64,000 nucleotides of DNA from Candidatus Poribacteria bacterium (GCA_965205015.1 OZ242029.1:3616001-3680000), one strand, 5' to 3'. Numbered from the stretch's first letter, positions 18,774 through 41,553 are shown. Notes: a model not told the origin generated them from the sequence alone. Numbers and translations are program-made.

Positions 18774-20627
18774 TCAGTTGAGTGTTGGGTTTCGATGGGT
18801 TTCAATATTGTTGATAACTGTATCGGCGCGGGCAATTAATGTGTTTCGTTCATCTACAGATAACGGCACAGGCGCGAATCGGTGGTAATCACACTTGGTG
18901 AGAAGATCGATGAGTTCATCAAGAACAGATTCGGGGATTCCGACGTGTGTGCATACTTGGCGTGCTGTGTCGATATTCCGTTGTGCCAAGTCGCATGTAT
19001 CCTCAAGATACTGATAAAGCACTTGGGCGAGTGCGTTGGCGAACGACGTCGCATTTTCTGTGGTGTGGCTATTTGCGAGTGCTGCAAGTGCCTCGCGTGC
19101 TTGTGAAGCGGGTGTTACGGGTTCTGTCTCGGTCTCTTGTGTTTTTCGCTTCCCGAGTCCACCCATATTGCGTGTGCCTGTTCCGGTCTCAGTGGATGAC
19201 TTCCTTCGCGTCGGTATCGCAAACCCAGTGCGATACCAGAGATACCCGCCTATTCCCAATGCTACTATCAGAATTGCCGAGAGGATTAACCAACGTAACC
19301 ATGGTGAACTACCGGTCTCATCTTCAGCGGGATCGTTTGGGTGGGGACGCACGGAAACAGGGATAGGGGTGGTCTGCGTCGTTGCATAAACCCCGCGGGT
19401 CGGATCGAAATAGGCGTATGCGATGGCGGGGATGCGGAATATCCCCCTTCTGGCAGCGGTTAGGGTGTATACGTACCCCCGGCTTGTTGGTGTCACTTCA
19501 AACGGATTGGGTCTGCTCACCATGACGCCTGCAATTGCTGGCAGCGTCGGGGGTGTGACTGTCTGGATGTTGCCGTGTCCGGAGATACGGACGGTGAGCG
19601 TGAGCGCGCGTCCGGCTTCAATCCAACCCCGCTCAATTTCAGCAGAAATTTGATATTCACCGATAGCACCGTTGAAGTGAGGCGGTCTGCCTATTTCGGG
19701 AATCGGTTGCACTGTCAAGGTCAACGGTTTGGTTTTTAAGGTTCTGCGTCCTTGCGGGAGGGGTAGGAACAGTTCAGCAGGTGCGATAATGATCTGTCCG
19801 GTTTTCTTTGGGTATAATTTATGTGTGTATTCTTCGACCCAAAATGTCCGCCCGCGAATTTGCTGTGTATAGGTCTGAGACTTTTGAAGTTTCTCAACGA
19901 GGAAGTCCCGGAAGGTCGGGAGTCGGGGAGTTGGGGACTCGCGAGTCGGGAGGACTGTCGTGTAGAGGTGTCGGAAGGTATACGTAAATGGTGCGTTGAG
20001 GTAGGGCTGCGCGGTATTGACCTCTGCTTCAACTTGATGGATCGCGTTGGTTGAGACATCTACGTATGTATCGGTACCGCTCACGCGAATCGAACCCGGA
20101 TTTGCGAAGTACGGGGTGCCTTGATAGGCGAGACGGATGTCGGATAGCGTAAAGTCGCCGATCGCTTGCGGGATCAATTCATAAGCCCACGCCATAGAAA
20201 CCGCAATCTTGTTTGTTTCTAATCGTGGTGTGGTTTCGGAATGCAGTGGCACTGCAAGGAACGCCGGTAGGAAATTGAACTGCGGTGCTTCAACATGCTT
20301 GATGTGTGCCTTCCCTGAAAGTGTGAGGTCCAACCGCGCTTTCTCTCCGAATTGGATGTGACGCGGATTCACTACGGCAGCGACATGAATCTCTTGGCTG
20401 TGTGCCGCTGTTACAAGAAAGATGAAAATGATGCCGACGAAAAAAAATGGGAGAAGGGGATGGAAGGATGGAAGAAGGGAAGGATGGAGGATCCACGCTT
20501 CCAACCTTCCAACCTTCCAACCAAGAATCTTTCCATCCTTCTGAAGTTTACCAATCCTTTTCACGCCGATATCCGCTTTTGCGTTGTTGTTGCAGTAATT
20601 TTTGCCGTAGTCTGTTTTCATTCTCAC
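18774..20627 (-). CDS. batD: BatD family protein (true start probably near 20500)
   Basis: Repeated Ig-like Bat domains (YELIPQAIGDFTL, LYPKKTG, FNGAIG, G.GNI, YFDP...Y); C-terminal TM and RFAP; follows a BatC-like TPR gene. Confidence 0.8.
   Translation of the reverse strand: MRMKTDYGKNYCNNNAKADIGVKRIGKLQKDGKILGWKVGRLEAWILHPSLLPSFHPLLPFFFVGIIFIFLVTAAHSQEIHVAAVVNPRHIQFGEKARLDLTLSGKAHIKHVEAPQFNFLPAFLAVPLHSETTPRLETNKIAVSMAWAYELIPQAIGDFTLSDIRLAYQGTPYFANPGSIRVSGTDTYVDVSTNAIHQVEAEVNTAQPYLNAPFTYTFRHLYTTVLPTRESPTPRLPTFRDFLVEKLQKSQTYTQQIRGRTFWVEEYTHKLYPKKTGQIIIAPAELFLPLPQGRRTLKTKPLTLTVQPIPEIGRPPHFNGAIGEYQISAEIERGWIEAGRALTLTVRISGHGNIQTVTPPTLPAIAGVMVSRPNPFEVTPTSRGYVYTLTAARRGIFRIPAIAYAYFDPTRGVYATTQTTPIPVSVRPHPNDPAEDETGSSPWLRWLILSAILIVALGIGGYLWYRTGFAIPTRRKSSTETGTGTRNMGGLGKRKTQETETEPVTPASQAREALAALANSHTTENATSFANALAQVLYQYLEDTCDLAQRNIDTARQVCTHVGIPESVLDELIDLLTKCDYHRFAPVPLSVDERNTLIARADTVINNIETHRNPTLN
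20457..20541. repeat. GGAAG/CTTCC palindromic repeat overlapping the batD N-terminus
   Basis: ggaaggatggaagaagggaaggatgg ... cttccaaccttccaaccttccaacc ... ttccatccttc. Confidence 0.7.
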
Positions 20628-21177
20628 TGAAACGTTCTAAGTGCCGAAGGGCTTCCGCTTTGCCAACGTCGTTCGGCTCGGTTTTCGGTGCGGGGTTTCT
20701 CTTTGCTTGCTGTTGTGCGAGGTCTTCCTGCTGTTTTAAAAGTTGACGCGCCACTGCAAGATTGTGTTGTGCGTCAGTATCTTGCGGGTCCAAGCGAAGT
20801 GCTTGCTGATAAGCGTCAATTGCACTCGTAAGGTCGCCGACTTTAAATTGGGCGTTTCCTAAGTTATACAGGATGCTTGATCGATTGAGAATATCTTCGG
20901 TTTGTTCGAAATGTCTTGATAGCGATGTCTGAAATGTCCGTGCCGCCTCTTGAAACCTACCTTGTTTATAGAGGGCAGTCCCCAGGTTATAGTGTGCAAC
21001 CGGATTGTCAGGTTTTTCAAGCGTTGCCTGTTGAAAAGCGGCTCGTGCTTCGTCGTAGTTTCCGCGCACATAAGCTTCGTTTCCAGCCTTCATGACGCGG
21101 GTCCAACCGCCTATCCACCCAACGAGGGCAATAACGAAAACAGTCGTAAACGAGCAACAGAGCATTTTGTTCAACAT
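20548..21177 (-). CDS. TPR protein, BatC-like
   Basis: GNEAY..G.Y..A, YNLGTALYKQG, YNLGNAQF and DAQHNLA repeats; C-terminal EKDW typical of BatB/BatC. Confidence 0.8.
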   Translation of the reverse strand: MLNKMLCCSFTTVFVIALVGWIGGWTRVMKAGNEAYVRGNYDEARAAFQQATLEKPDNPVAHYNLGTALYKQGRFQEAARTFQTSLSRHFEQTEDILNRSSILYNLGNAQFKVGDLTSAIDAYQQALRLDPQDTDAQHNLAVARQLLKQQEDLAQQQAKRNPAPKTEPNDVGKAEALRHLERFSENENRLRQKLLQQQRKSGYRREKDW

Positions 21178-31082: not shown

Positions 31083-33497
31083 ATGACACCTGAACAGAGA
31101 GCAAGACGCACCATAGACAAAATGCTTGAAGCAGCAGGATGGTACATCCAAAATTATGCTGAACGTGATACAGCTGCTGCGTTGGGTGTGGCTGTGCGTG
31201 AGTATCGGTTGAGAGCGGATCAGAGGGCGGATTATCTCCTCTTTATCGGTGGCGTTGCAATCGGGGTTATTGAAGCCAAACCAGAAGGCACAACTCTCAG
31301 CGGAGCCCTTCAACAAGCAGAACGGTATCGTGCGAATTTGCCAGATGACTTACCGAATCGCACCAGATTTTTCTTTTCCTACGCCTCAACAGGAGCTGAG
31401 ACATACTTTCGAGATATTCGGGATCCTGATTCTCGTTCTCGACAAGTATTTACATTTCATACGCCTGAAGCACTTGCCAACGCCTTTCACCAACCCAGTA
31501 CCTTGCGTGAGAGACTTAAAACGGATATACCGCGATTAGAGAAAGGCACTCTGAGAGACTGCCAATTTAAGGCAATAAACGGCCTTGAAGATTCTTTGAA
31601 GGAAGCGCGCCCGCGCGCGTTAATCCAAATGGCGACTGGCAGTGGAAAAACGCACGCTGCTGTAACCAGCACATATCGACTCATCAAATTTGCTAAGGTC
31701 AAACGGATCCTTTTTCTCGTAGACCGGCGGAACCTCGGTAGGCAGGCTTTTCGCGAGTTTCAGGGTTACACACCTCTCGATGACAATTCAAGATTCACGG
31801 AACTCTACAACGTTCAACACCTCGCCAGCAACACAATTGATCCGGTAAGTCAGGTCTGTATCACGACACTCCAACGTCTCTATTCTATGCTGAAGGGTGA
31901 AACCGACTATGAAATGGAAGCAGAAGAGTCTTCCGCTTTTGAAAATGAGGGGGAACAGATACCAGAAGTCGTCTATAATCCATCAATCCCTATTGATACT
32001 TTTGACGTTATCATTGTTGATGAATGCCATCGTTCCATCTACGGCAAATGGCGACAGGTGTTGGAATACTTCGATGCTTTCATTATCGGACTCACTGCAA
32101 CGCCGTATAGACAAACGCTCGGCTTTTTTGACCACAACCTCGTGTCTGAATATCGCCACGAACAAGCCGTAGAGGACGATGTAAACGTTGGTTATTACGT
32201 CTATCGGATTCAAACTGAAATTACGCAAAGCGGGAGCACAGTTGAGGCGGGTAGTTATGTCGCAAGACGTGATAGGCAAAGTCGGAGGCTTAACTGGGAT
32301 GAGTTAGACGCTGATGTCGAATATAGGGAAACACAATTGGATCGCGATGTGGTTGCCATAGACCAAATTCGAACAGTGATTCAAGCTTTCAAGGAAAAAC
32401 TTTTCACTGATCTCTTTCCCAGTAGACAAACTGTTCCCAAAACGCTTATCTTTGCGAAAGATGACTCTCATGCCGAGGATATTGTTCAGATTGTCCGAGA
32501 GGTGTTTGCCAAAGGAGACGAATTCTGTCAGAAGATTACCTATCAGAGTGATAGACCGGAAGATCTCATCAGAAGGTTTCGTACACAATTAAATCCACGA
32601 ATCGCTGTAAGTGTGGACATGATTTCTACCGGCACCGATATTAAACCGCTTGAGTGTTTAGTCTTTATGCGTGCTGTTCGGTCAAGTGGTTATTTTGAGC
32701 AGATGATTGGGCGCGGCGTGCGCGTCATCAGTCCTAACGATCTGCAAGCTGTCACCGGTGATGCAACTGCAAAAACGCACTTCATTATTGTTGATGCTGT
32801 CGGTGTCTATGAATCCGTCAAAACCGATTCACGAGCCCTTCCAGGCGAGCCAGCCACTCCTACGGAGCCAAACGGACCACCAGTAAGAGATCCCAACCAG
32901 CTTATTGATGATGTCAGCGTGGATCAAGTTACTGAAACTGGTTTTGACGATCAAAGTTTTACACAGATAGGGATAGTGATTCATGCCTTTAAACAGTTTA
33001 TTGATGAAAATGTGAATGAATTGTCAGCGTTGCAAATTCTTCGCAGAGTGTCAGGCGCGCGAGGCGCGCTGCGTGAAAACGATTTGAAAGCGTTAGAAAA
33101 AGCCTTGCTACAGCATTCAAACAGTCTGAGTCGCGAGTCATTATGGTTGGCTTACAAAAGACGGTCACCAGAGAACGTCCGAGGGGATACGGAACAACGC
33201 ACAGACCTCATATCCCTCGTTCGATTTGCTATGGGGTATAATCTTTTTCTGGAGCCGTTTCGTGCAACTGTCAACCAAAATTTTGAAGAGTGGTTAGGTG
33301 GTAAGGATTTTAACTCGGAGCAACATGAATGGCTTGAATTGATTCGAGACCACATTGCCACTTCACTTGATATTCGGATGGAAGACTTTGAGTACGCTCC
33401 CTTCGCGGAACGTGGAAATGGCACGAGGGTTTATCAACTTTTCGGTGATAACTTAAACAACATTCTAAAGGATCTTACAGAGGAATTGGTTTCCTAA
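31083..33497 (+). CDS. hsdR: Type I restriction enzyme R subunit (EcoEI/EcoAI-like)
   Basis: ADY..VIEAK..QAERY nuclease motifs; MATGSGKT, DECH, TAT and QMIGRG helicase motifs; EcoEI-R-like C-terminus. Confidence 0.93.
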   Translation: MTPEQRARRTIDKMLEAAGWYIQNYAERDTAAALGVAVREYRLRADQRADYLLFIGGVAIGVIEAKPEGTTLSGALQQAERYRANLPDDLPNRTRFFFSYASTGAETYFRDIRDPDSRSRQVFTFHTPEALANAFHQPSTLRERLKTDIPRLEKGTLRDCQFKAINGLEDSLKEARPRALIQMATGSGKTHAAVTSTYRLIKFAKVKRILFLVDRRNLGRQAFREFQGYTPLDDNSRFTELYNVQHLASNTIDPVSQVCITTLQRLYSMLKGETDYEMEAEESSAFENEGEQIPEVVYNPSIPIDTFDVIIVDECHRSIYGKWRQVLEYFDAFIIGLTATPYRQTLGFFDHNLVSEYRHEQAVEDDVNVGYYVYRIQTEITQSGSTVEAGSYVARRDRQSRRLNWDELDADVEYRETQLDRDVVAIDQIRTVIQAFKEKLFTDLFPSRQTVPKTLIFAKDDSHAEDIVQIVREVFAKGDEFCQKITYQSDRPEDLIRRFRTQLNPRIAVSVDMISTGTDIKPLECLVFMRAVRSSGYFEQMIGRGVRVISPNDLQAVTGDATAKTHFIIVDAVGVYESVKTDSRALPGEPATPTEPNGPPVRDPNQLIDDVSVDQVTETGFDDQSFTQIGIVIHAFKQFIDENVNELSALQILRRVSGARGALRENDLKALEKALLQHSNSLSRESLWLAYKRRSPENVRGDTEQRTDLISLVRFAMGYNLFLEPFRATVNQNFEEWLGGKDFNSEQHEWLELIRDHIATSLDIRMEDFEYAPFAERGNGTRVYQLFGDNLNNILKDLTEELVS

Positions 33498-33625: not shown

Positions 33626-35077
33626 ATGCGAACTCGATTTTCTAATGATTTGCCAAGAGGATGGATATGGACAACATTGGAGGAAATCAGCGAGATTATA
33701 CTGGGACAATCTCCTCCGTCCTCAACCTATAACACCGATGGAGAGGGACTGCCTTTCTATCAAGGTAAACTTGAATTTGGGAAACTCTATCCTACCCCGC
33801 GAAAATGGTGCACCACTCCAAAGAAGATTGCCCAAAAAGGCGATGTGTTCATTTCTATTCGCGCCCCAGTTGGACCAACGAACTTGTGTCCAGAGAAATC
33901 TGCGGTAGGAAGAGGGCTTGCCGCAATTCGTGGTTTGGGTGGAATCCAACCGTTATTCATCCTCTACCTGGTGCGTGGATTTGAAAATGAAATCGCAAGT
34001 AAGGGAACTGGAACAACTTTTGATGCAATAACGGGAAACCAACTCAAAACCTTTGAGATTCCAGTTCCACCGTTAGCAGAACAACGCCGCATTGTTGCCA
34101 AGATAGAGACACTGTTTACACAATTAGACGTAGCAGTTGATAGCTTAAAAGAAGCACACACGCAGTTGCAACGGTATCGCCGATCAATCCTCAAGGCTGC
34201 TTTTGACGGGGAGTTGACAAGGGAATGGCGCGAAGGATATTCGGGTGAACTTGAAACGATGCCGGTTTTAGAAGTTCCTACGCTGGACGGTTTACCAGAG
34301 CTGCCTGATAGTTGGGTATGGACGACCTTAGCAAGTTGCGCCGAGATTTTAGATAGTCAACGAGTGCCGATAAACGCAAAAGAACGGGCAACAAGGATAA
34401 GTGGTAAACCTGAGTCAAAACTTTATCCATACTATGGGGCAACTGGACAAGTTGGCTGGATTGATGATTACTTGTTTGATGACGAGCTCGTTTTATTAGG
34501 GGAAGATGGTGCCCCGTTTTTGGACTTTTTAAAAGACACTGCATATCTGATTAAGGGAAAAAGTTGGGTAAATAATCATGCTCATGTTTTGAAAGCAAAA
34601 ACTGAAATTTCGTCAAACCAATTTTTATGCGATTATCTAAATACTGTTGATTATCACGGTTATTTGACTGGAACAACAAGACTAAAACTCAACCAGTCAG
34701 CAATGCGAAAAATACTTGTTCCGATTCCACCGCTTCCTGAGCAGCAGTGCATTATTACAGAAATAGAACGTTGTTTCTGTATTGCTAACAAAGCTGAAAC
34801 AACCATTGCGGCAGAACTTAAACGTGCGGAACGTCTGCGGCAGTCTATCCTAAAACAAGCGTTCTATGGTAAACTCGCGCCGCAAGATCCGAACGATGAA
34901 CCAGCAAGCGTCCTATTGGAGAAAATTCGCGAAGAAAAAGAATATCAACAACCCAAACACGAAAAAAAGACGACGAAATCAAAGGCGCAGGACAGCGATG
35001 ATTATCCACTTCTCACGTTGGCCGGAGCGTTGGAACAAAATGATGATTCCATCAGCGATGCATCGCGGGTAGAATAG
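33626..35077 (+). CDS. hsdS: Type I R-M specificity subunit with an extra C-terminal tail
   Basis: Two TRDs, each followed by PPL.EQ..I; LP.GW.W repeats; SILK.AF.G.L and QDPNDEPASVLLEKI. Confidence 0.93.
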   Translation: MRTRFSNDLPRGWIWTTLEEISEIILGQSPPSSTYNTDGEGLPFYQGKLEFGKLYPTPRKWCTTPKKIAQKGDVFISIRAPVGPTNLCPEKSAVGRGLAAIRGLGGIQPLFILYLVRGFENEIASKGTGTTFDAITGNQLKTFEIPVPPLAEQRRIVAKIETLFTQLDVAVDSLKEAHTQLQRYRRSILKAAFDGELTREWREGYSGELETMPVLEVPTLDGLPELPDSWVWTTLASCAEILDSQRVPINAKERATRISGKPESKLYPYYGATGQVGWIDDYLFDDELVLLGEDGAPFLDFLKDTAYLIKGKSWVNNHAHVLKAKTEISSNQFLCDYLNTVDYHGYLTGTTRLKLNQSAMRKILVPIPPLPEQQCIITEIERCFCIANKAETTIAAELKRAERLRQSILKQAFYGKLAPQDPNDEPASVLLEKIREEKEYQQPKHEKKTTKSKAQDSDDYPLLTLAGALEQNDDSISDASRVE

Positions 35078-35090
35078 CGAGGTAATAACG

Positions 35091-35372
35091 GTGAATAAAA
35101 AAGATCAAGGCGAGTTTAAGAGAAAGGATGCTGATCCACTCCTCGCCCTTGCAGGAACGCTGAAATTTGATGTTAAAAAAATAAAGAAACGCATCAAGGA
35201 TTCTGTCCGTCTACAGATACGTGTAGTTGAAGGTCCCTATGCAAATCACCCAGATCCGCTCATCGCGTTGGCCGGAACGCTGCAATCTGATGTCACCGAC
35301 ATCGGTGAACGGCATGATGACTATATCGCGGACGCACTGTTGGTAGAATTATGGGGAGATCCAGATGAATAA
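35091..35372 (+). CDS. Small antitoxin-like protein with a duplicated DPL(L/I)ALAGTL motif
   Basis: GTG start with GAGGT RBS; C-terminal DPLIALAGTLQSDVTDIGERHDDYI resembles antitoxins usually paired with PIN toxins. Confidence 0.55.
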   Translation: MNKKDQGEFKRKDADPLLALAGTLKFDVKKIKKRIKDSVRLQIRVVEGPYANHPDPLIALAGTLQSDVTDIGERHDDYIADALLVELWGDPDE

Positions 35373-35598
35373 AGTAGACGTGAAGTGTAAGGCAAGAGAA
35401 GTTTTTGTTCTCGAATTCCTGCGTCAAGGCAATATTAGTGCCGGTAGAGCGGCACGACTGCTCAACATTTCGCGATGGGATCTCTTGGAATTGATGTACG
35501 AGGCCGGAATCTCTCCTTTTGACGACAGCCTTACAGGAGAAACGTTAGATGCTGAAGTTAAAAGTGCATTGAAAGATTTTGATGAACCCAACCTATAA
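35365..35598 (+). CDS. UPF0175-family (HTH) antitoxin-like protein, N-terminally short
   Basis: G.ISAGRAARLLNISRWDLLELM...GI motif; 8-bp overlap with the upstream ORF. Confidence 0.7.
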   Translation: MNKVDVKCKAREVFVLEFLRQGNISAGRAARLLNISRWDLLELMYEAGISPFDDSLTGETLDAEVKSALKDFDEPNL

Positions 35599-35732
35599 CA
35601 TTCTTATGAGCTATCAAACCGGATATTTGCAAAGTACCAATGCTGAAATAGTTATTGTGTTTGATAAAAATCTATGTTAAAATATACAAAAGAGTAGTAA
35701 ATTAATCTTAAAATTTGATTAGGTAGTACATT

Positions 35733-36548
35733 ATGGATGCAGAAAAAAGGAAACTTGATTTCGATAACCCTCCCGTAGAAGAGGTCGTATTGAGTATTCT
35801 TTTTCAATCACTCGATAACCTTCTGGCACCTCATCTTGGGGAAATTTGGCAGGTATTTAAAAAAGATGGGTTTATACGAATAATGGAGCAGCCACCGGTC
35901 ATACCGACTATGGAAACCTTCCCGAACCCAAGTCGGGAGCCTCAATTCCATATTAATGTTCCGGACCTTCCAAGGATTTGGTTCATCCATGAAAATGATA
36001 ACCAAATTCTACAAGTTCAACGCGATCGATTTACATTTAATTGGCGCAAAACCAAATCAGGTCAGAAATATCCTGGATTCTCAGCAATTTTTGAAAGTTT
36101 TGAAGGCTTCTATAATCGATTCTGCCAGACCATCAAAAACATGGACATTGGTTTATTGACTCCTTTGCAGTATGAACTAACCTATATTGATCAGCTGCCG
36201 CAAGGGGACAGTTGGAATACCCTTTATGATATAGGAAAAATCTACGATCCGTTTGTTGATTTCCAACAATCAGACTCATTTTGGTCAGATGCCGACTTTG
36301 TGAATTTACGGGTGTCATTCCCTATCCCAAACTTGCAAGGTCGTTTACATCTCGCAGTTGGTAATCGAGTAAAACACCCAGAACAACAACAAACGCTACA
36401 AACTGATTTTACAGCACGCGGTTTTTCAGAGAACACAGAATCTGAAATGAATATGTGGTTTGAGTTGGCGCATGACCAGATTCGTGAGAAATTTAGTAGC
36501 ATCTTTACAGAAGACATCCAGACACACGTATGGAAACGAAAATCATGA
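35733..36548 (+). CDS. TIGR04255-family (sporadically distributed) protein
   Basis: FDNPPVEEVVLSILF, RIWF, ILQVQRDRFTFNWRK...YPGF and ELTYID motifs; final AHD.I...F...FT. Confidence 0.8.
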   Translation: MDAEKRKLDFDNPPVEEVVLSILFQSLDNLLAPHLGEIWQVFKKDGFIRIMEQPPVIPTMETFPNPSREPQFHINVPDLPRIWFIHENDNQILQVQRDRFTFNWRKTKSGQKYPGFSAIFESFEGFYNRFCQTIKNMDIGLLTPLQYELTYIDQLPQGDSWNTLYDIGKIYDPFVDFQQSDSFWSDADFVNLRVSFPIPNLQGRLHLAVGNRVKHPEQQQTLQTDFTARGFSENTESEMNMWFELAHDQIREKFSSIFTEDIQTHVWKRKS

Positions 36549-37093
36549 GTACACGCAAAAGTTTCATCCCACATCCCGGCTATCAGAGTCAAATGGAATC
36601 GGAATTTATGAGTGCCCCCAATACCTTATCTTCAACTTCTTACGGCGTAGGTTTGCAAACTTACCAGACTAATCCTCCAATTGCAGATGAGAGGATATCG
36701 GGTTCGCCTCTGGACGCAAACCTATATTTATCTTGGATGGATGATGCCGATCGACAACTACAGGAAGTTCGTCAAGAAGCAGATGAAGCTTATATATTAG
36801 ATAATGAAATTGATCCGGTACCGGAGTCGGCATACGATGATGCTCTCTTTCTCTTAGAAGCATTCTTCCACTTTGGTATTCCTATGCCGGACTTGAGTTG
36901 GGCTGAAGATGGTAGTCTTACGCTTGGATGGTACCCAGAAAAAGGTACTATAGCAATCGGGATATATGGAGACAATCTTGTCATCTTTACTGCTTTCTTT
37001 GCAGAAAAACGTCAACTTGAAGGAATCTGCGAATTATCAGATACTCCAATGTTAGCAGGTTTCCTCACAACATTACTAAATATCCTCTATTAG
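36545..37093 (+). CDS. Acidic hypothetical protein translationally coupled to the TIGR04255 gene
   Basis: ATGA overlap at 36545-36548; low-complexity N-terminus; P.P.L...EDGSLTLGW core. Confidence 0.7.
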   Translation: MSTRKSFIPHPGYQSQMESEFMSAPNTLSSTSYGVGLQTYQTNPPIADERISGSPLDANLYLSWMDDADRQLQEVRQEADEAYILDNEIDPVPESAYDDALFLLEAFFHFGIPMPDLSWAEDGSLTLGWYPEKGTIAIGIYGDNLVIFTAFFAEKRQLEGICELSDTPMLAGFLTTLLNILY

Positions 37094-37188
37094 GACTTAC
37101 GCATTTCCTTTTAAAGTTCCCTGATAAGGGGAATTTAGGGGGTTAAATTGCTGAAATAACGCCTTTTTACACAATTTGCGTAAATCCT
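37092..37188. mobile_element. About 97-bp MITE with AGGACTTACGCA terminal inverted repeats
   Basis: aggacttacgca (37092) ... tgcgtaaatcct (37188); related element at 53728-53849. Confidence 0.7.
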
Positions 37189-37224
37189 GTTAATAAGAAC
37201 TATCTTTGTAATTAAGGAACTGAT

Positions 37225-37626
37225 ATGAAGGTTTCACCGGGTGAGACACTCACCCGTTTTATTCGTTATGGTAGCCATTTTTCCGATGTAACTAATAGAG
37301 TTCGACCTGATGCGTTTCTCCCACATAAAAGAAGTATTGATATATCTGTGTTTCGTATATCAGAACTTACCGAAGATGAAGTATGGAAAATTGGGCAGGA
37401 ATATGTTCATACAGAAGAAAGATCCGTAAAAGCAAGAGCAGATCTTTCCGCTGCTGTTGCTTATGAGAACAGTTTCGAGGTTGTACCAGACGAGCCTCCC
37501 CACAGGCATGCAAATATTGGATCTTTTCCTGTAGATAACGGTCCCACAAATAGAAAAGCGCGTCGATCACTCGCCGCCAAACTCGCTACACTTAGCAAAT
37601 TGGTCATACCCCCTGAAGAAACTTAA
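37225..37626 (+). CDS. Small hypothetical protein, possible ADP-ribosyltransferase-like fold
   Basis: LTRF..., AF.P, ISVFR and PDEPPHRHANI motif order; AAGGA RBS; the fold call is an inference. Confidence 0.55.
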   Translation: MKVSPGETLTRFIRYGSHFSDVTNRVRPDAFLPHKRSIDISVFRISELTEDEVWKIGQEYVHTEERSVKARADLSAAVAYENSFEVVPDEPPHRHANIGSFPVDNGPTNRKARRSLAAKLATLSKLVIPPEET

Positions 37627-37656
37627 TCTCAGCTTAAACATAATTAAAAAAGATCT

Positions 37657-39123
37657 ATGTCAAACGAATCTGCAACAATCGTCCAGAAACTCTGGAATTT
37701 CTGCAACGTGCTCCGGGATGACGGGGTCAGTTACGGAGATTATGTTGAACAACTTACCTATCTGCTGTTCCTCAAACTTGCCGACGAACAGACGAAACCG
37801 CCTTTCAACAAACCCGCAACAATTCCCATAGATTTAGATTGGGAGAGCCTTCTTAACGAAAGCGGTGCCGAGTTAGAGACACAATATGTCAAAATCCTTC
37901 GAGAACTGAGCCATGCCCAAGGCTTACTCGGTGTGATTTTCCGAAAATCCCAAAACCGCATTCAAACACCTGCGAACTTGCAACGCCTTATCCACCTTAT
38001 CAACGATGAGAATTGGAGCGGGATGACTGCCGACATTAAAGGCACTATCTATGAAGGACTTCTACAGAAAAATGCCGAAGATACCAAAAGTGGAGCAGGT
38101 CAGTACTTCACACCACGTCCTCTTATCAAGGCAATGGTTACCGTGGCACGTCCCGAACCGCTGCAAACTATCTGTGATCCTGCATGTGGGACTGGGGGTT
38201 TCTTTCTCGCTGCACACGACTACATTTCCGAAAAATATAGCAGTCGGATGGATCGCGAACAGAAGGATTTCCTTAGATTTAACACATTCGCTGGCACAGA
38301 CATCGTTGATAACGTCGTCCGTCTGTGTGTGATGAATTTATACCTACACGGTATCGGGGGAATGGAAAGTCCAATTACAACCGATGATAGCCTCAGTCGA
38401 GACACTGGAGATCGCTACGACATAGTACTTACAAATCCACCGTTCGGGAACAGGAGCAGTATTACAATCGCTGCTGATGGCAGTAGAAGAAACAACGCTT
38501 CACTCACCTATGAGCGCGATGACTTCTGGGCGACAACTTCGAACAAACAATTCAATTTTCTCCAACACATCAAGACGATTCTGAAGACAGATGGACGCGC
38601 TGCTGTCGTCCTTCCAGATAATGTTCTCTTTGAACGGGGCGCGGGAGAAACAATTCGCCAGCAATTACTCAAACAGTTCGATGTGCATACACTGTTGCGA
38701 TTGCCAACCGGCATCTTTTACGCCCAAGGGGTCAAAGCGAATGTGCTTTTTTTCGATAAGAGACCGGCGCGTGAAGAACCGTGGACCCGGAAACTCTGGA
38801 TTTATGACCTGCGAACAAATAAACGCTTTACACTCAAGACGAATCCACTGCAAGACACCGATCTGCAAGATTTTATAACCGCCTACAATCCAGAGAATCG
38901 CGAGGCACGGGTTGAAACTGAGCGGTTCCGTGCCTTTAGTTACGATGAACTGATCGAACGGGAACATGTCAATCTCGACATCTTCTGGTTGAAAGAGGAT
39001 TCGCTTGAGGATGCAGCGGACCTTCCGACGCCAGATGTATTAGTCGCGGAAATCACCGAAAATTTAGAGGCGGCATTAGCGCAATTTCAATCCATCCAAG
39101 ATGAATTAGACAATAACGAATAA
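37657..39123 (+). CDS. hsdM: Type I R-M methyltransferase subunit
   Basis: KLWNFCNVLRDDG, GQYFTPR, DPACGTGGF, NPPF and LRLPTGIFY motifs. Confidence 0.96.
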   Translation: MSNESATIVQKLWNFCNVLRDDGVSYGDYVEQLTYLLFLKLADEQTKPPFNKPATIPIDLDWESLLNESGAELETQYVKILRELSHAQGLLGVIFRKSQNRIQTPANLQRLIHLINDENWSGMTADIKGTIYEGLLQKNAEDTKSGAGQYFTPRPLIKAMVTVARPEPLQTICDPACGTGGFFLAAHDYISEKYSSRMDREQKDFLRFNTFAGTDIVDNVVRLCVMNLYLHGIGGMESPITTDDSLSRDTGDRYDIVLTNPPFGNRSSITIAADGSRRNNASLTYERDDFWATTSNKQFNFLQHIKTILKTDGRAAVVLPDNVLFERGAGETIRQQLLKQFDVHTLLRLPTGIFYAQGVKANVLFFDKRPAREEPWTRKLWIYDLRTNKRFTLKTNPLQDTDLQDFITAYNPENREARVETERFRAFSYDELIEREHVNLDIFWLKEDSLEDAADLPTPDVLVAEITENLEAALAQFQSIQDELDNNE

Positions 39124-41553
39124 ATGAAGACACATTTCCTTGAAAACCTTCTCGGTTGCCCATTAGAAGGGACGCTCTCGGCAATCCCAGCGGACACGAC
39201 TGCCCTCGAAACTTTCCTGAATACACTTTCCACAGATACACTTGAAAACGACCTCACACCGCAATGGGTGGTGCTTGCGGCGGGTAAAGGCACGCGTATT
39301 GACCCTACCGGACGCTTGAGCAAAACGCTGGACATCACCTTCGGTGAACAGAACACGCTCCAGTGCTCGCGGCGTTACCTGCCCGGCACGCGTCCCGATA
39401 TTGTCGTCATTAACCCACAGATGGCAGCGCGTATTGAGAAAAATGGGGATCCGGCGCAACTGCTGGGGCCTGATGCCATTCCGTGTATCCAAGAAGAGAT
39501 GAACGGCACAGGGGGTGCCCTGCAAGCGGCACTGCCCGCACTCCAAGCGTCCGACGCAGAATGGATCGGGGTCGCATTCGGCGATGAACCCTTTTTGGAT
39601 CGCGAGGTTTTCGCACAGACGCTGCTCTCCCACTTCATTTCTGGCGCGGATGTTACCCTCTGCGGCAAGGTCCCTGAAACGGTTGTGGATAAGGGGGGAC
39701 TCTTTTTCGATGTGGATGGAGGACTCACCGGGACCAAAGAGTGGTACGACATGACAGCGGCGGAAAAACAGGAGATGTGGGACCGGTGGCATCGCGGGGA
39801 AGCGTATACCAATACGGGTATCACACTGATTCGGAAGAGCGCGTTGATAGATCGGATATATCGGTTGCAACCCCACACAAACCGAAACGATGAACTCCAC
39901 CACGTTGATCTGATCCGACACTGTTATGAGGATGGATTGAAAACCAATGCTTTCATCTATCGCGGGGACGTGCTGTCAGGCGTTAACCGCTGGTCGAACG
40001 TGCTATCGGGTGAAGCGGCACTGTTTGCGGAGACGCGGGAATCTCTCGCAAGGAAAGGCGTTCGCGTTGACCCCACCGCACAGATCACGTTGGGCAGTGA
40101 AGACATTGAGATCGGGACGGCGTGCTATCTCCTCGGCAGGGTCCATCTCGGTGAAAAGGTTCGGATCGGGGATTACTGTCGACTTGAAAATGCTACGCTC
40201 CTCGGAGCGACAACGGTCGGAGATGCGGTTGGATTGCAGAACGTCACTGCCAACGATACAACGTTTGAAGCGAATCTACTCCCTGAAAGGTTAGCAGCAC
40301 CTGTTCGGGGGCTTGCGACAGGGAGTACGATAGAAAATAGCACTTTCGATGCGGTGAATGTGGGAAACAACGTCCAACTTTCATCCATTGTGGCGTGTGG
40401 GACGGTGATTCCTTCTGATATTGTCTTGTCACATCGGACACTCGGGGTCCCACCAGCGCACTCCCCCTCTGCTGTGCCAAAATCACTTTTCGAGCAGGTT
40501 GTAACAGACGCGTATATCCCTGGGGTTTTCACCTTCGGTGAGAAAAAAGGGTTGCCGGATTGGGAGAATTTGCGACACCATGTTCAATCTCACAGTGCGA
40601 CGGAATTGATCCCACGTGCGACGCGTAACCCACAATTGCAACAAGCGGCGTGCGCCGCGGTAGAAACACTTTTGGATCTTCGAGGCGCCGCTGGCGATTT
40701 TCTCATCGAATCCCTCACGCCAGAAGAACTCTGGGGCAGTATCTTTGAGATGGTTACGCTTTACACCGGCAATCCGAACCCCTACCACCACGATAAATTG
40801 AAAGCCCGACAGACGGCACTCGCACTCCTCCCCGAGTTTTGGAAAGACGATTGGTTAACCCGTTTGAAGGTGGTCGTCGCAGGCAATATTATCGATTACA
40901 GCAGTGAACGGGTTGTCAAAAAATTGAAAGCCAATCCTGATTATTTTTCTGAATCGCTCCGTGCGGCGGTTGACACCTCTTTTTCTATCGACTGTTATAA
41001 AGTATTCCGCGAAAAGGTGATTGACGCGGCACCGCAGGAGATCCTTTGGCTTGCCGACAACGATGGAGAGGTGATTTTTGACATCGCCTTCATTCAGGAA
41101 CTCGTGAAGTGTGGACACCGTATCGTTATTGTTGGAAAAGTGGACAACGCCAGTAACGATGCGACGGTCGCAGATTTACAGGAAATCGTGAGGTATCCGC
41201 AATTCCAAGAAGTCCAGACGGCGATACAAGAAGGGATTGTGAAATTGATGTCGTCCGGCGCGAAGACGATCGGGACGAATCTCTATCAGGGGACGCCTGA
41301 ATTTTTCAATGCATTGTTGGAGGCAGACCTCGTTATTTCAAAAGGACAAGGAAACTTTTTTACAACGCCGGGTTGGGCGAAAGACACATTTTACTTGCTG
41401 CTTTCCAAAGGTGTAACAGCGGAGCAGAGCACAGGCGTTGTTGCAGATCGGAATTTGTTGATTGACGGGCTTATTTTGGCTTACGTCCCGGGTGGAACGA
41501 AGCGGCACACGCCCCTCCGGCGTATCTGCCAAAAACAGACAAGTGGACATTAA
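39124..41553 (+). CDS. Fusion of a GlmU-like nucleotidyltransferase, a left-handed beta helix and a DUF89/ARMT1 damage-control phosphatase
   Basis: LAAGKGTR, GTGGA, GDEP, NTG and GVN; hexapeptide repeats; AGNIID, DNDGE, NDAT and SKGQGN. Confidence 0.8.
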   Translation: MKTHFLENLLGCPLEGTLSAIPADTTALETFLNTLSTDTLENDLTPQWVVLAAGKGTRIDPTGRLSKTLDITFGEQNTLQCSRRYLPGTRPDIVVINPQMAARIEKNGDPAQLLGPDAIPCIQEEMNGTGGALQAALPALQASDAEWIGVAFGDEPFLDREVFAQTLLSHFISGADVTLCGKVPETVVDKGGLFFDVDGGLTGTKEWYDMTAAEKQEMWDRWHRGEAYTNTGITLIRKSALIDRIYRLQPHTNRNDELHHVDLIRHCYEDGLKTNAFIYRGDVLSGVNRWSNVLSGEAALFAETRESLARKGVRVDPTAQITLGSEDIEIGTACYLLGRVHLGEKVRIGDYCRLENATLLGATTVGDAVGLQNVTANDTTFEANLLPERLAAPVRGLATGSTIENSTFDAVNVGNNVQLSSIVACGTVIPSDIVLSHRTLGVPPAHSPSAVPKSLFEQVVTDAYIPGVFTFGEKKGLPDWENLRHHVQSHSATELIPRATRNPQLQQAACAAVETLLDLRGAAGDFLIESLTPEELWGSIFEMVTLYTGNPNPYHHDKLKARQTALALLPEFWKDDWLTRLKVVVAGNIIDYSSERVVKKLKANPDYFSESLRAAVDTSFSIDCYKVFREKVIDAAPQEILWLADNDGEVIFDIAFIQELVKCGHRIVIVGKVDNASNDATVADLQEIVRYPQFQEVQTAIQEGIVKLMSSGAKTIGTNLYQGTPEFFNALLEADLVISKGQGNFFTTPGWAKDTFYLLLSKGVTAEQSTGVVADRNLLIDGLILAYVPGGTKRHTPLRRICQKQTSGH

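Follow-up and report, generated by a model that had tools for sequence, protein, structure and literature searches.

A candidate tripartite toxin-antitoxin-type module of TIGR04255, an acidic protein and a predicted ADP-ribosyltransferase-fold protein inside a Type I restriction-modification operon of Candidatus Poribacteria

Three groups of described systems come closest to the locus analysed here. The PDC set collects cassettes embedded in BREX, DISARM or Type I restriction-modification (R-M) loci by "guilt-by-embedding" and was added to PADLOC untested, and its authors describe genes embedded in Type I R-M as usually independent systems (10.1101/2024.01.29.577857). The toxin-antitoxin-chaperone (TAC) systems include CmdTAC, a defence system with an ADP-ribosyltransferase (ART) toxin, and reportedly employ a SecB-like chaperone that recognises a ChAD element (PMC11618068, 10.1101/2024.02.24.581848). 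Lastly, KptA is described as an RNA-repair ART that, like RES, uses phosphate as the acceptor (PMC9503650). Here we describe a trio of adjacent genes, g1, g2, and g3, in a stretch of 64,000 nucleotides (nt) from a Candidatus Poribacteria bacterium (GCA_965205015.1 OZ242029.1:3616001-3680000; hereafter, the window), nested between the hsdS and hsdM genes of a Type I R-M operon, and we compare it with these systems.

The initial annotation had described three co-oriented, visibly AT-rich open reading frames (ORFs) with a coupling overlap between the first two. All three are present and intact on the + strand: g1 (35733-36548) encodes a protein of 271 amino acids (aa) of the NCBIfam family TIGR04255, g2 (36545-37093, with an alternative ORF start at 36530) a protein of 182 aa, and g3 (37225-37626) a protein of 133 aa with a predicted ART fold. 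The ATG of g2 at 36545 overlaps the TGA of g1 (36546-36548) in an ATGA, as had been claimed, and a spacer of 131 nt (37094-37224) separates g2 from g3. Their G+C content (0.40-0.43) is indeed lower than that of hsdR, hsdS, and hsdM (0.44-0.47) and of the whole window (0.49), so that the AT-richness is real, but it is modest. A complete Type I R-M set (hsdR, hsdS, and hsdM, by Pfam) flanks the trio, which is cargo inside this operon. Chance or spurious ORFs were considered and ruled out, as g1, g2, and g3 each have a large conserved family. Moreover, g2 and g3 are adjacent, co-oriented small genes with a conserved pairing, the arrangement of a type II-like toxin-antitoxin (TA) pair. We put at a little better than even the chance that the trio is one mobile, self-promoted, tripartite module of the toxin-antitoxin type, carried as cargo in the Type I R-M operon.

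Among the PADLOC v2 models, no significant match is found for the proteins of the window, except for a neighbouring UPF0175 protein (PDC-S70, 2e-16). The closest candidate for the trio is PDC-M32, whose B protein is weakly similar to 15 of the 46 g3-family members (best E 3.4e-5) and whose A protein, in its C-terminal part (about positions 252-346 of 375), is weakly similar to the g2 core in 15 of 23 members (best E 4.1e-4) and to 5 of 10 middle genes from environmental loci. In contrast, the g2 of the window reaches only E 0.037-0.039 (profile positions 275-346 of 375), its g3 has no match at E<=0.1, none of 10 environmental g3 proteins matches PDC-M32B at E<=0.01, and the third gene is different, since neither g1 nor any of 10 TIGR04255 proteins matches the approximately 375 positions of PDC-M32A. 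The idea that PDC-M32A is a TIGR04255-g2 fusion was likewise ruled out, given that 0/10 TIGR04255 proteins match it. Because the g2 and g3 families match two halves of one candidate system, a remote common ancestry is plausible, and by sequence similarity the trio appears to be remotely akin to PDC-M32 and not a member of it. The label "undescribed" in the initial annotation has to be tempered: relatives of g2 and g3 weakly match that untested candidate, although the g2 and g3 of the window themselves fall below significance. Literature searches on PDC-M32 returned only a listing of a PADLOC hit, with no functional description, and those on the TIGR04255/g2/g3 trio returned no description of it.

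The comparison with the TAC systems is one of logic, which the trio resembles, apparently sharing none of its parts. In both cases there would be three genes, for a toxin of the ART type, its antitoxin, and another protein that, according to the TAC reports, is believed to control the antitoxin. TAC antitoxins carry a chaperone-addiction extension that is found only in the chaperone-linked versions; in the Poribacteria loci, the extension of our putative antitoxin likewise occurs only together with the third gene (TIGR04255), and it may or may not be a counterpart. The ChAD element is C-terminal. The extension described here is instead N-terminal, the third protein is a TIGR04255 member with a predicted tandem TBP-like/guanidino-kinase-like fold rather than a SecB-like chaperone, the gene order is third protein, antitoxin, and toxin, and no sequence similarity links the trio to any PADLOC model other than PDC-M32. 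What would be new, by analogy with these systems, is the trio as a putative ART-toxin TA/TAC-like module in an R-M operon, with a first contextual role for TIGR04255.

The trio was expected to recur in other genomes, and it does, both outside Poribacteria and within them. Environmental loci were fetched with a degenerate pattern for the commonest motif of the g3 family, RHANIxGWP, which returned 2 viral and 119 metagenome stretches; 110 of these 121 contain a g3-family ORF. Where at least 1500 nt are available upstream (35 loci), simple ORF rules identify two co-oriented upstream ORFs of approximately 165 and 248 aa in 27 loci, and 23 of 26 distal upstream ORFs score above the TIGR04255 cut-off, with E from 1.8e-28 to 2.3e-43. 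With local profiles, 29 of the 35 loci carry TIGR04255, a g2-like gene, and g3 in this order; in the remaining six, three have the g2-like gene only and three have neither. A g2-like gene is also found 5' of g3 in 24 of the 25 loci with 550-1499 nt upstream, and hence, when all environmental loci that offer 550 nt or more are taken together, in 56 of 60. Among the pairs of middle and g1 genes for which coordinates are listed, 19/26 overlap or abut and 7 do not. The g2 of the window is homologous to the g2-like middle genes of the environmental trios (hhalign 96.7%, E 4e-10). The TIGR04255/g2-like/g3 order is, in summary, the dominant architecture of the sampled g3 subfamily.

In the lineage of the window, the picture is that of a pair with an optional partner. 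A scan of species-representative genomes yielded 30 loci (28 titled Candidatus or uncultured Poribacteria and 2 "uncultured bacterium"), which were read by tblastn with the nine proteins of the window. These relatives share a backbone of hsdR-hsdS...hsdM followed by the gene of an 809-aa protein, with a variable middle. A g2 lies directly upstream of 40 of the 41 g3 copies, and the 63 copies of g2 comprise these 40, followed by g3, and 23 that are solo. TIGR04255 is present in 9 of the 30 loci with nine copies, all of which are followed by g2 and then by g3; in three genomes that were checked, a single TIGR04255 gene is found in each, at the R-M locus. The g2-g3 pair is, therefore, the repeated core in Poribacteria and TIGR04255 is the optional third part; beside the environmental trios, the TIGR04255-free Poribacteria pairs look like derived, amplified forms. 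Specifically, the g2 proteins that are linked to TIGR04255 align from residue 1-14 of the g2 of the window in 9/9 loci, and the TIGR04255-free copies (n=54) align from residue 47 or later, none of them with a long N-terminus; therefore, the long N-terminus of g2 and TIGR04255 go together.

The g2 family comprises at least 130 proteins, with a core of about 115 aa that has 28 invariant columns and an N-terminus that is variable or absent. In the window, the 182-aa form that starts at 36545 has the length of eight of its nine closest database matches, the ninth (P0086) being 187 aa long. The S/T/P/Q-rich N-terminus of about 55 aa and the acidic core that were noticed initially are borne out by composition: the 55 N-terminal residues are 45% S/T/P/Q and the core has an isoelectric point (pI) of 4.05, with 24 D+E against 5 K+R. 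No meaningful match for g2 was found in Pfam, NCBIfam or PHROGs.

The assignment of g1 to TIGR04255 holds, with a match at E 2.5e-16 and 60.3 bits (cut-off 30) that spans positions 2-249 of the 252 in the model. Within the family it is divergent, the environmental trio proteins scoring 100-149 bits. No match to g1 was found in Pfam (E<=0.1), PADLOC or PHROGs, the full-text literature search for TIGR04255 returned no paper, and the ESM Atlas returned only unnamed or TIGR04255 clusters. Sequence searches of the PDB with g1, g2, g3, and the g3 profile brought up no meaningful match, HisZ (E 0.16) and eIF4E (E 0.083) scoring best. The AlphaFold2 (AF2) model of g1, with a predicted local distance difference test (pLDDT) score of 81.5 and a predicted template modelling (pTM) score of 0.83, consists of two similar alpha+beta halves. 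Foldseek places TBP at the top (E 1.1e-3, probability 0.98), followed by AdoMetDC and McsB, and a wide structure search is headed by McsB and by the catalytic domains of arginine and taurocyamine kinases (Z 7.3-7.5, 179-189 aligned), with spermine synthase, Mediator, SerRS, glutamate-cysteine ligase, glutamine synthetase, Dop, TBP, and Bet v 1-like entries in lower rows; SecB is absent among the listed fold rows. The predicted fold class would be a duplicated, curved antiparallel sheet backed by long helices (tandem TBP-like/guanidino-kinase-like), an assignment that does not fix the function. An enzymatic role of g1 is possible, because polar columns are conserved in its family (E17, Q94, and Y113).

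The third protein, g3, has no meaningful match in Pfam (E<=0.1), NCBIfam or PHROGs, and 46 of its relatives match no Pfam family (E<=0.01) and give only chance-level rows in NCBIfam. There are 78 close relatives, and the g3 profile retrieves, from 1.84 billion cluster representatives, 2339 at E<=1e-3 and 1057 at E<=1e-10, mostly of 120-160 aa, each representative standing for one cluster at 50% identity; by these profile searches, the family appears to be large and is unnamed. Its near-invariant columns are R11, F31, P33, S41, W54, R71, L84, H95, A96, I98, and L120, and they include the order R...AF...SV...H that had been read from the single sequence (R11, F31, S41, and H95). In the ESM Atlas the nearest Pfam-bearing cluster is DUF6098 at 0.91, an unconfirmed lead, as the third gene of a Mycobacterium operon described below has no Pfam match.

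An ART fold had been predicted for 37225-37626, and the structural comparisons point the same way. The AF2 model of g3, built from a 46-row alignment, has a pLDDT of 96.5 and a pTM of 0.88. Against the PDB, Foldseek gives weak rows only, with KptA/Tpt1 at the top (E 0.11, probability 0.87). A second search of 48161 chains, independent of Foldseek, has KptA (Z 7.5), Tse2 (6.7), AvrPphF (6.3), and mouse Tpt1 (6.2) in the lead, and 10 of its top 11 rows are ART-superfamily or ART-like proteins, namely KptA/Tpt1 (4), AvrPphF, CopC, Scabin, DarT (2), and TreX; Tse2 is also one that we take to be ART-like. Further rows of the ART type are Tne2, PltA, pertussis, Xre-RES, SidE, Arr, LT, MTX, and CARDS, alongside diphtheria toxin, SPN, NarE, OspC3, and pierisin, and ART-superfamily chains dominate the top 50 of the 48161. 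The nearest matches in the model comparison are thus ARTs directed at nucleic acids, KptA/Tpt1 first and then DarT and Scabin. Because one superfamily fills the top structure rows near-exclusively, the predicted ART fold is credible, at the level of the fold only. The classical ART triad is located on strands 1, 2, and 5 and consists of R/H, S/Y, and the catalytic E (H-Y-E or R-S-E). In the g3 model, strand 1 contains R11, strand 2 contains S41, and strand 5 opens with H95-A-N-I.

In its class of fold (Z 4.2-6.7), in its small size, and in having a candidate neutralising partner encoded next door, g3 is comparable to the small ART toxins of the DarT-DarG, Xre-RES, Tse2-Tsi2, TreX-TriX, and Tne2-Tni2 pairs. 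The triads of ART toxins are H-Y-E, R-S-E, and R-E-S. In contrast, the conserved pattern of g3 is R...S...H, no sequence relationship between it and these toxins is detectable, and g2 is, by Pfam, neither a macrodomain nor an Xre helix-turn-helix nor a known immunity family.

A promoter-like site upstream of g1 (35655-35683, + strand) may provide the cassette with its own transcription. The TTGTGT-17-TAAAAT site that had been pointed out is present in the sequence, with a -35-like TTGTGT at 35655-35660, a spacer of 17 nt, a -10-like TAAAAT at 35678-35683, and a TG two bases 5' of the -10 that makes it TG-extended. Taken alone, its match to the consensus is weak: only 3/6 bases of the -35 hexamer match, and a generic promoter scan did not list the site and found fewer sites in the region (8) than in shuffled sequences (11.5). 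When the g1 upstream regions of 8 trio loci are aligned, neither the TTG nor the TAAAAT varies and 7/8 loci retain the TG, in flanks that otherwise diverge (mean column identity 63%); this conserved site suggests a promoter of the cassette itself. Within the cassette, an AAGGA sits 7 nt 5' of the ATG of g3, in the g2-g3 spacer. In relatives this spacer varies and is for the most part missing, with gaps of approximately 17-60 nt vs 131 nt in the window, and the extra 85 nt or so have no counterpart in the closest locus (L017). Rfam gave no match within 34900-37800 at E<=0.1, spacer included. A terminator-like hairpin with a T-run is located inside codons 5-14 of g3 (37238-37266, + strand), with an 8-bp stem of 6 G-C pairs followed by TTTTATT. 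Its nucleotides are near-invariant in 15 related g3 copies, with no covariation, and synonymous codon sharing is 0.88 in codons 4-15 vs 0.71 in the remainder of the gene. The hairpin may damp the expression of the putative toxin, or it may merely reflect constraints on the 5' end of the gene.

In the mechanism that we propose for the tripartite module, g3 would be the effector, a minimal ART equivalent to the NAD+-binding (NAD+, nicotinamide adenine dinucleotide) lobe of KptA/Tpt1, which would arrest the cell. Its activity would be, as a first guess, the NAD+-dependent ADP-ribosylation of a nucleic-acid or phosphate target and, as a second guess, the depletion of NAD+; the first guess is suggested by the fact that KptA, DarT, and Scabin are the nearest matches and that the acceptor of KptA and RES is phosphate. 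The g2 protein would be the cognate neutraliser, binding g3 through its conserved acidic core of about 115 aa. Lastly, g1 would be a regulatory third component that acts on the low-complexity N-terminal extension of g2 as a stabiliser or a sensor, so that the loss or titration of g1, for instance upon phage infection, would set g3 free. In favour of this reading stand the predicted fold of g3 with its conserved residues on the expected strands, the pairing of g2 with g3, the order of the trio, the link between TIGR04255 and the g2 extension, and the conserved promoter-like site. Solo g2 genes and g3 copies broken by stops, moreover, form the pattern of orphan antitoxins and decaying toxins. 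Mobile and defence contexts point in the same direction, namely the Type I R-M operons, a provirus trio and a trio-like plasmid operon (both described below), AIPR and a Type I R-subunit fragment beside 2 of 23 environmental trios, and the remote similarity to PDC-M32. In our own judgement, an actual anti-phage role of the trio has somewhat less than an even chance. A more specific version is offered tentatively and we consider it rather doubtful: the trio would be a widespread, unnamed tripartite immune module in which TIGR04255 guards or senses through the N-terminal extension of g2 and, on a phage cue, releases a single-lobe, KptA-like R-S-H ART that ADP-ribosylates nucleic-acid phosphate ends or consumes NAD+.

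Several points weigh against the tripartite reading. With regard to the genomic evidence, 31 of the 40 g2-g3 pairs in Poribacteria lack TIGR04255, and the environmental sample was drawn with a single motif (RHANIxGWP) and so represents one subfamily. Moreover, most genes beside 23 environmental trios have housekeeping roles (FtsK, UvrB, MutS, asparaginase), and therefore enrichment in defence islands, which the neighbourhood survey had been expected to reveal together with the conservation of the trio, is not shown, although the conservation is; an AIPR protein, a Type I R-subunit fragment, DUF4143/AAA, RadC, and DprA-like genes are single cases in these flanks. With regard to the proteins, the fold matches of g1 do not exceed Z 7.5, which is weak, and they are scattered over TBP, AdoMetDC, guanidino kinases, and glutamine synthetase. 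The structural Z of g3 is middling (<=8.4) and could reflect a common arrangement, the argument resting on the dominance of one superfamily. Where ARTs have their catalytic Glu, g3 has H95 and shows no evident conserved acidic residue, and the putative R-S-H assignment follows from the order of secondary-structure elements only. To our knowledge, Tse2 and AvrPphF, both among the top matches of g3, are ART-like folds without demonstrated ART activity. The pI of g3 is neutral (6.98), with nothing that points to a nucleic-acid-binding surface. The putative toxicity, the use of NAD+, and the binding of g2 to g3 and of g1 to g2 are read from the fold, the gene order, the coupling, and the co-variation of features, and the structure prediction of the g1+g2+g3 complex provided neither support nor evidence against.

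The alternative that survives best, although we regard it as unlikely, is a plain two-gene addiction module in which g2 is the antitoxin and g3 the toxin, and which would stabilise the R-M island or mobile elements, with no phage defence and with TIGR04255 as a mere accessory traveller. It draws on the Poribacteria loci, in which the pair alone is repeated (40 of 41 g3 copies with a g2, only 9 pairs with TIGR04255) and in which copies are tandemly amplified and some are decayed. Specifically, a locus may contain as many as three g2-g3 pairs, which lie on one side of hsdM, after hsdS, or on the other, before the 809-aa gene, and several copies are interrupted. Among 150 genomes sampled from the phylum, 66 contain g3 relatives, and some of these relatives have internal stops.

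The mobile contexts of the operon would also fit addiction, as trio-like operons are found in a provirus and on a plasmid. The provirus (G004, L157/L158; 21.7 kb, 95% complete by CheckV) carries the trio at 19337-20978 on the minus strand, at the end opposite to the integrase, beyond the portal and capsid genes, and on the strand opposite to the phage genes. Morons or cargo are usually located on the strand opposite to the phage genes. On the Mycobacterium paragordonae plasmid NZ_CP025547.1 (L034, 4974-6713), a MobF relaxase gene immediately precedes a TIGR04255 gene, behind which lie two hypothetical genes that overlap and encode 180 and 142 aa; the gene of a type IV coupling protein is close by. 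The downstream proteins are only weakly similar to our profiles in hhalign (E 0.0048 at a probability of 7% vs the g3 profile and E 0.0036 at a probability of 9% vs the g2 profile), and this operon has a trio-like layout with a merely possible homology to g2 and g3. In tblastn against plasmids, g3 had no match, g1 matched one Mycobacterium plasmid, and the TIGR04255 protein of that plasmid matched only itself; the proteins of the Mycobacterium operon and of the environmental trios match no Pfam family. The housekeeping neighbours of the environmental trios are equally in keeping with addiction. Against a mere traveller stand the presence of TIGR04255 in 29 of the 35 environmental loci, in a fixed order and with 19/26 middle/g1 pairs that overlap or abut, and its tracking of the g2 N-terminal extension in 9/9 loci; moreover, addiction and defence can coexist.

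A second alternative, which we hold to be quite improbable, denies that g3 is a toxin. It would be a KptA/Tpt1-related, NAD+-dependent enzyme for the processing or repair of nucleic-acid ends, or a regulator, acting for example against RNA damage, and g2 and g1 would be subunits for substrate recognition or regulation. This view takes its strength from the refined structural comparison, where the best matches of g3 are all NAD+ lobes of Tpt1/KptA (16 entries, 15 at Z 6.3-8.4 and one at 5.4); the top match covers residues 88-180 of TkoKptA, the entire NAD+ lobe, over 91 residues (Z 8.4, root-mean-square deviation 2.5 A). It can also appeal to the neutral pI of g3 and to its lack of an obvious catalytic Glu, and KptA is itself described as an RNA-repair ART (PMC9503650). 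The same alignments speak against it, as they have sequence identities of 3-11% with matched chains of 176-187 residues and g3 aligns only to residues 88-180, without the N-terminal RNA lobe of Tpt1, so that the two-lobe architecture is absent; because only the NAD+ lobe is matched and the other lobe is absent, g3 is, as modelled, an ART-fold protein that does not belong to the Tpt1 family. Neither g3 (E<=0.1) nor the 46 family members (E<=0.01) have a Pfam Tpt1 match, and the sporadic, multi-copy, decaying, and mobile distribution, together with the orphan g2 genes, fits conflict systems better than repair.

The host operon belongs to a single co-oriented block of genes on the + strand that spans 31-41.6 kb of the window. 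It comprises hsdR (31083-33497; Pfam ResIII, EcoEI_R_C, and HSDR_N), hsdS (33626-35077; Pfam Methylase_S), and, downstream of the trio, hsdM (37657-39123; Pfam N6_Mtase 9.3e-67 and HsdM_N), all on the + strand. That the cassette is an accessory regulator of this R-M system, for example through restriction alleviation or the control of HsdR activity, is very improbable. In its favour, the hsdS-hsdM interval or the position right behind hsdM is where nearly all Poribacteria copies are found, in the orientation of the operon, and one environmental trio is followed by a fragment of a Type I R subunit. Against it, R-M genes are missing from the sequence available around most environmental trios, the provirus copy, and the Mycobacterium plasmid operon, the cassette comes with a conserved promoter-like site of its own, and genes embedded in Type I R-M are described as usually independent systems (10.1101/2024.01.29.577857).

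Other genes accompany the trio in the same block. Between hsdS and the promoter-like site, a second embedded pair consists of orf93 (35091-35372, + strand), which encodes a protein of 93 aa with an internal repeat of a DPL[LI]ALAGTL motif, and of a gene for a UPF0175 protein (35365-35598, + strand; Pfam UPF0175 3e-08), the one that matches PDC-S70; the two genes overlap by 8 nt and both are found again in related loci, where a UPF0175 gene often follows solo g2 copies. Downstream of hsdM, the 809-aa protein (39124-41553, + strand) is a fusion of a MobA-like NTP transferase, hexapeptide repeats, and an ARMT1-like/DUF89 phosphatase domain. Its gene begins one base past the hsdM stop, where the G+C content climbs to 0.53. 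In most of the related loci this gene flanks the R-M genes, and additional g2-g3 pairs are found next to it. The R-M locus of the relatives is a hotspot that gathers g2-g3 pairs and solo g2 (L002, L004, L012, L024, L026, L027, and others), with some of the hsdM and g3 copies broken into fragments and with a duplicated or partial hsdM in L004 and L007.

The three orphan families TIGR04255, g2, and g3 are linked by these observations in one conserved operon, which gains a testable mechanism, that of an ART-fold effector restrained by two partners. A confirmed function of g3 would annotate thousands of genes, given the 2339 representatives retrieved at E<=1e-3. The locus is, moreover, an example in support of searching for defence candidates through "guilt by embedding" in Type I R-M operons (10.1101/2024.01.29.577857). 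The way in which the extension of g2 tracks TIGR04255 may be regarded as a natural experiment on a two-part TA pair that becomes dependent on a third protein. If the tentative immune reading were true, the trio would be a convergent counterpart of the TAC systems made from entirely different parts, the orphan family TIGR04255 would acquire its first function, and the R-M locus of Poribacteria would offer a natural series from guard-dependent to guard-independent antitoxins.

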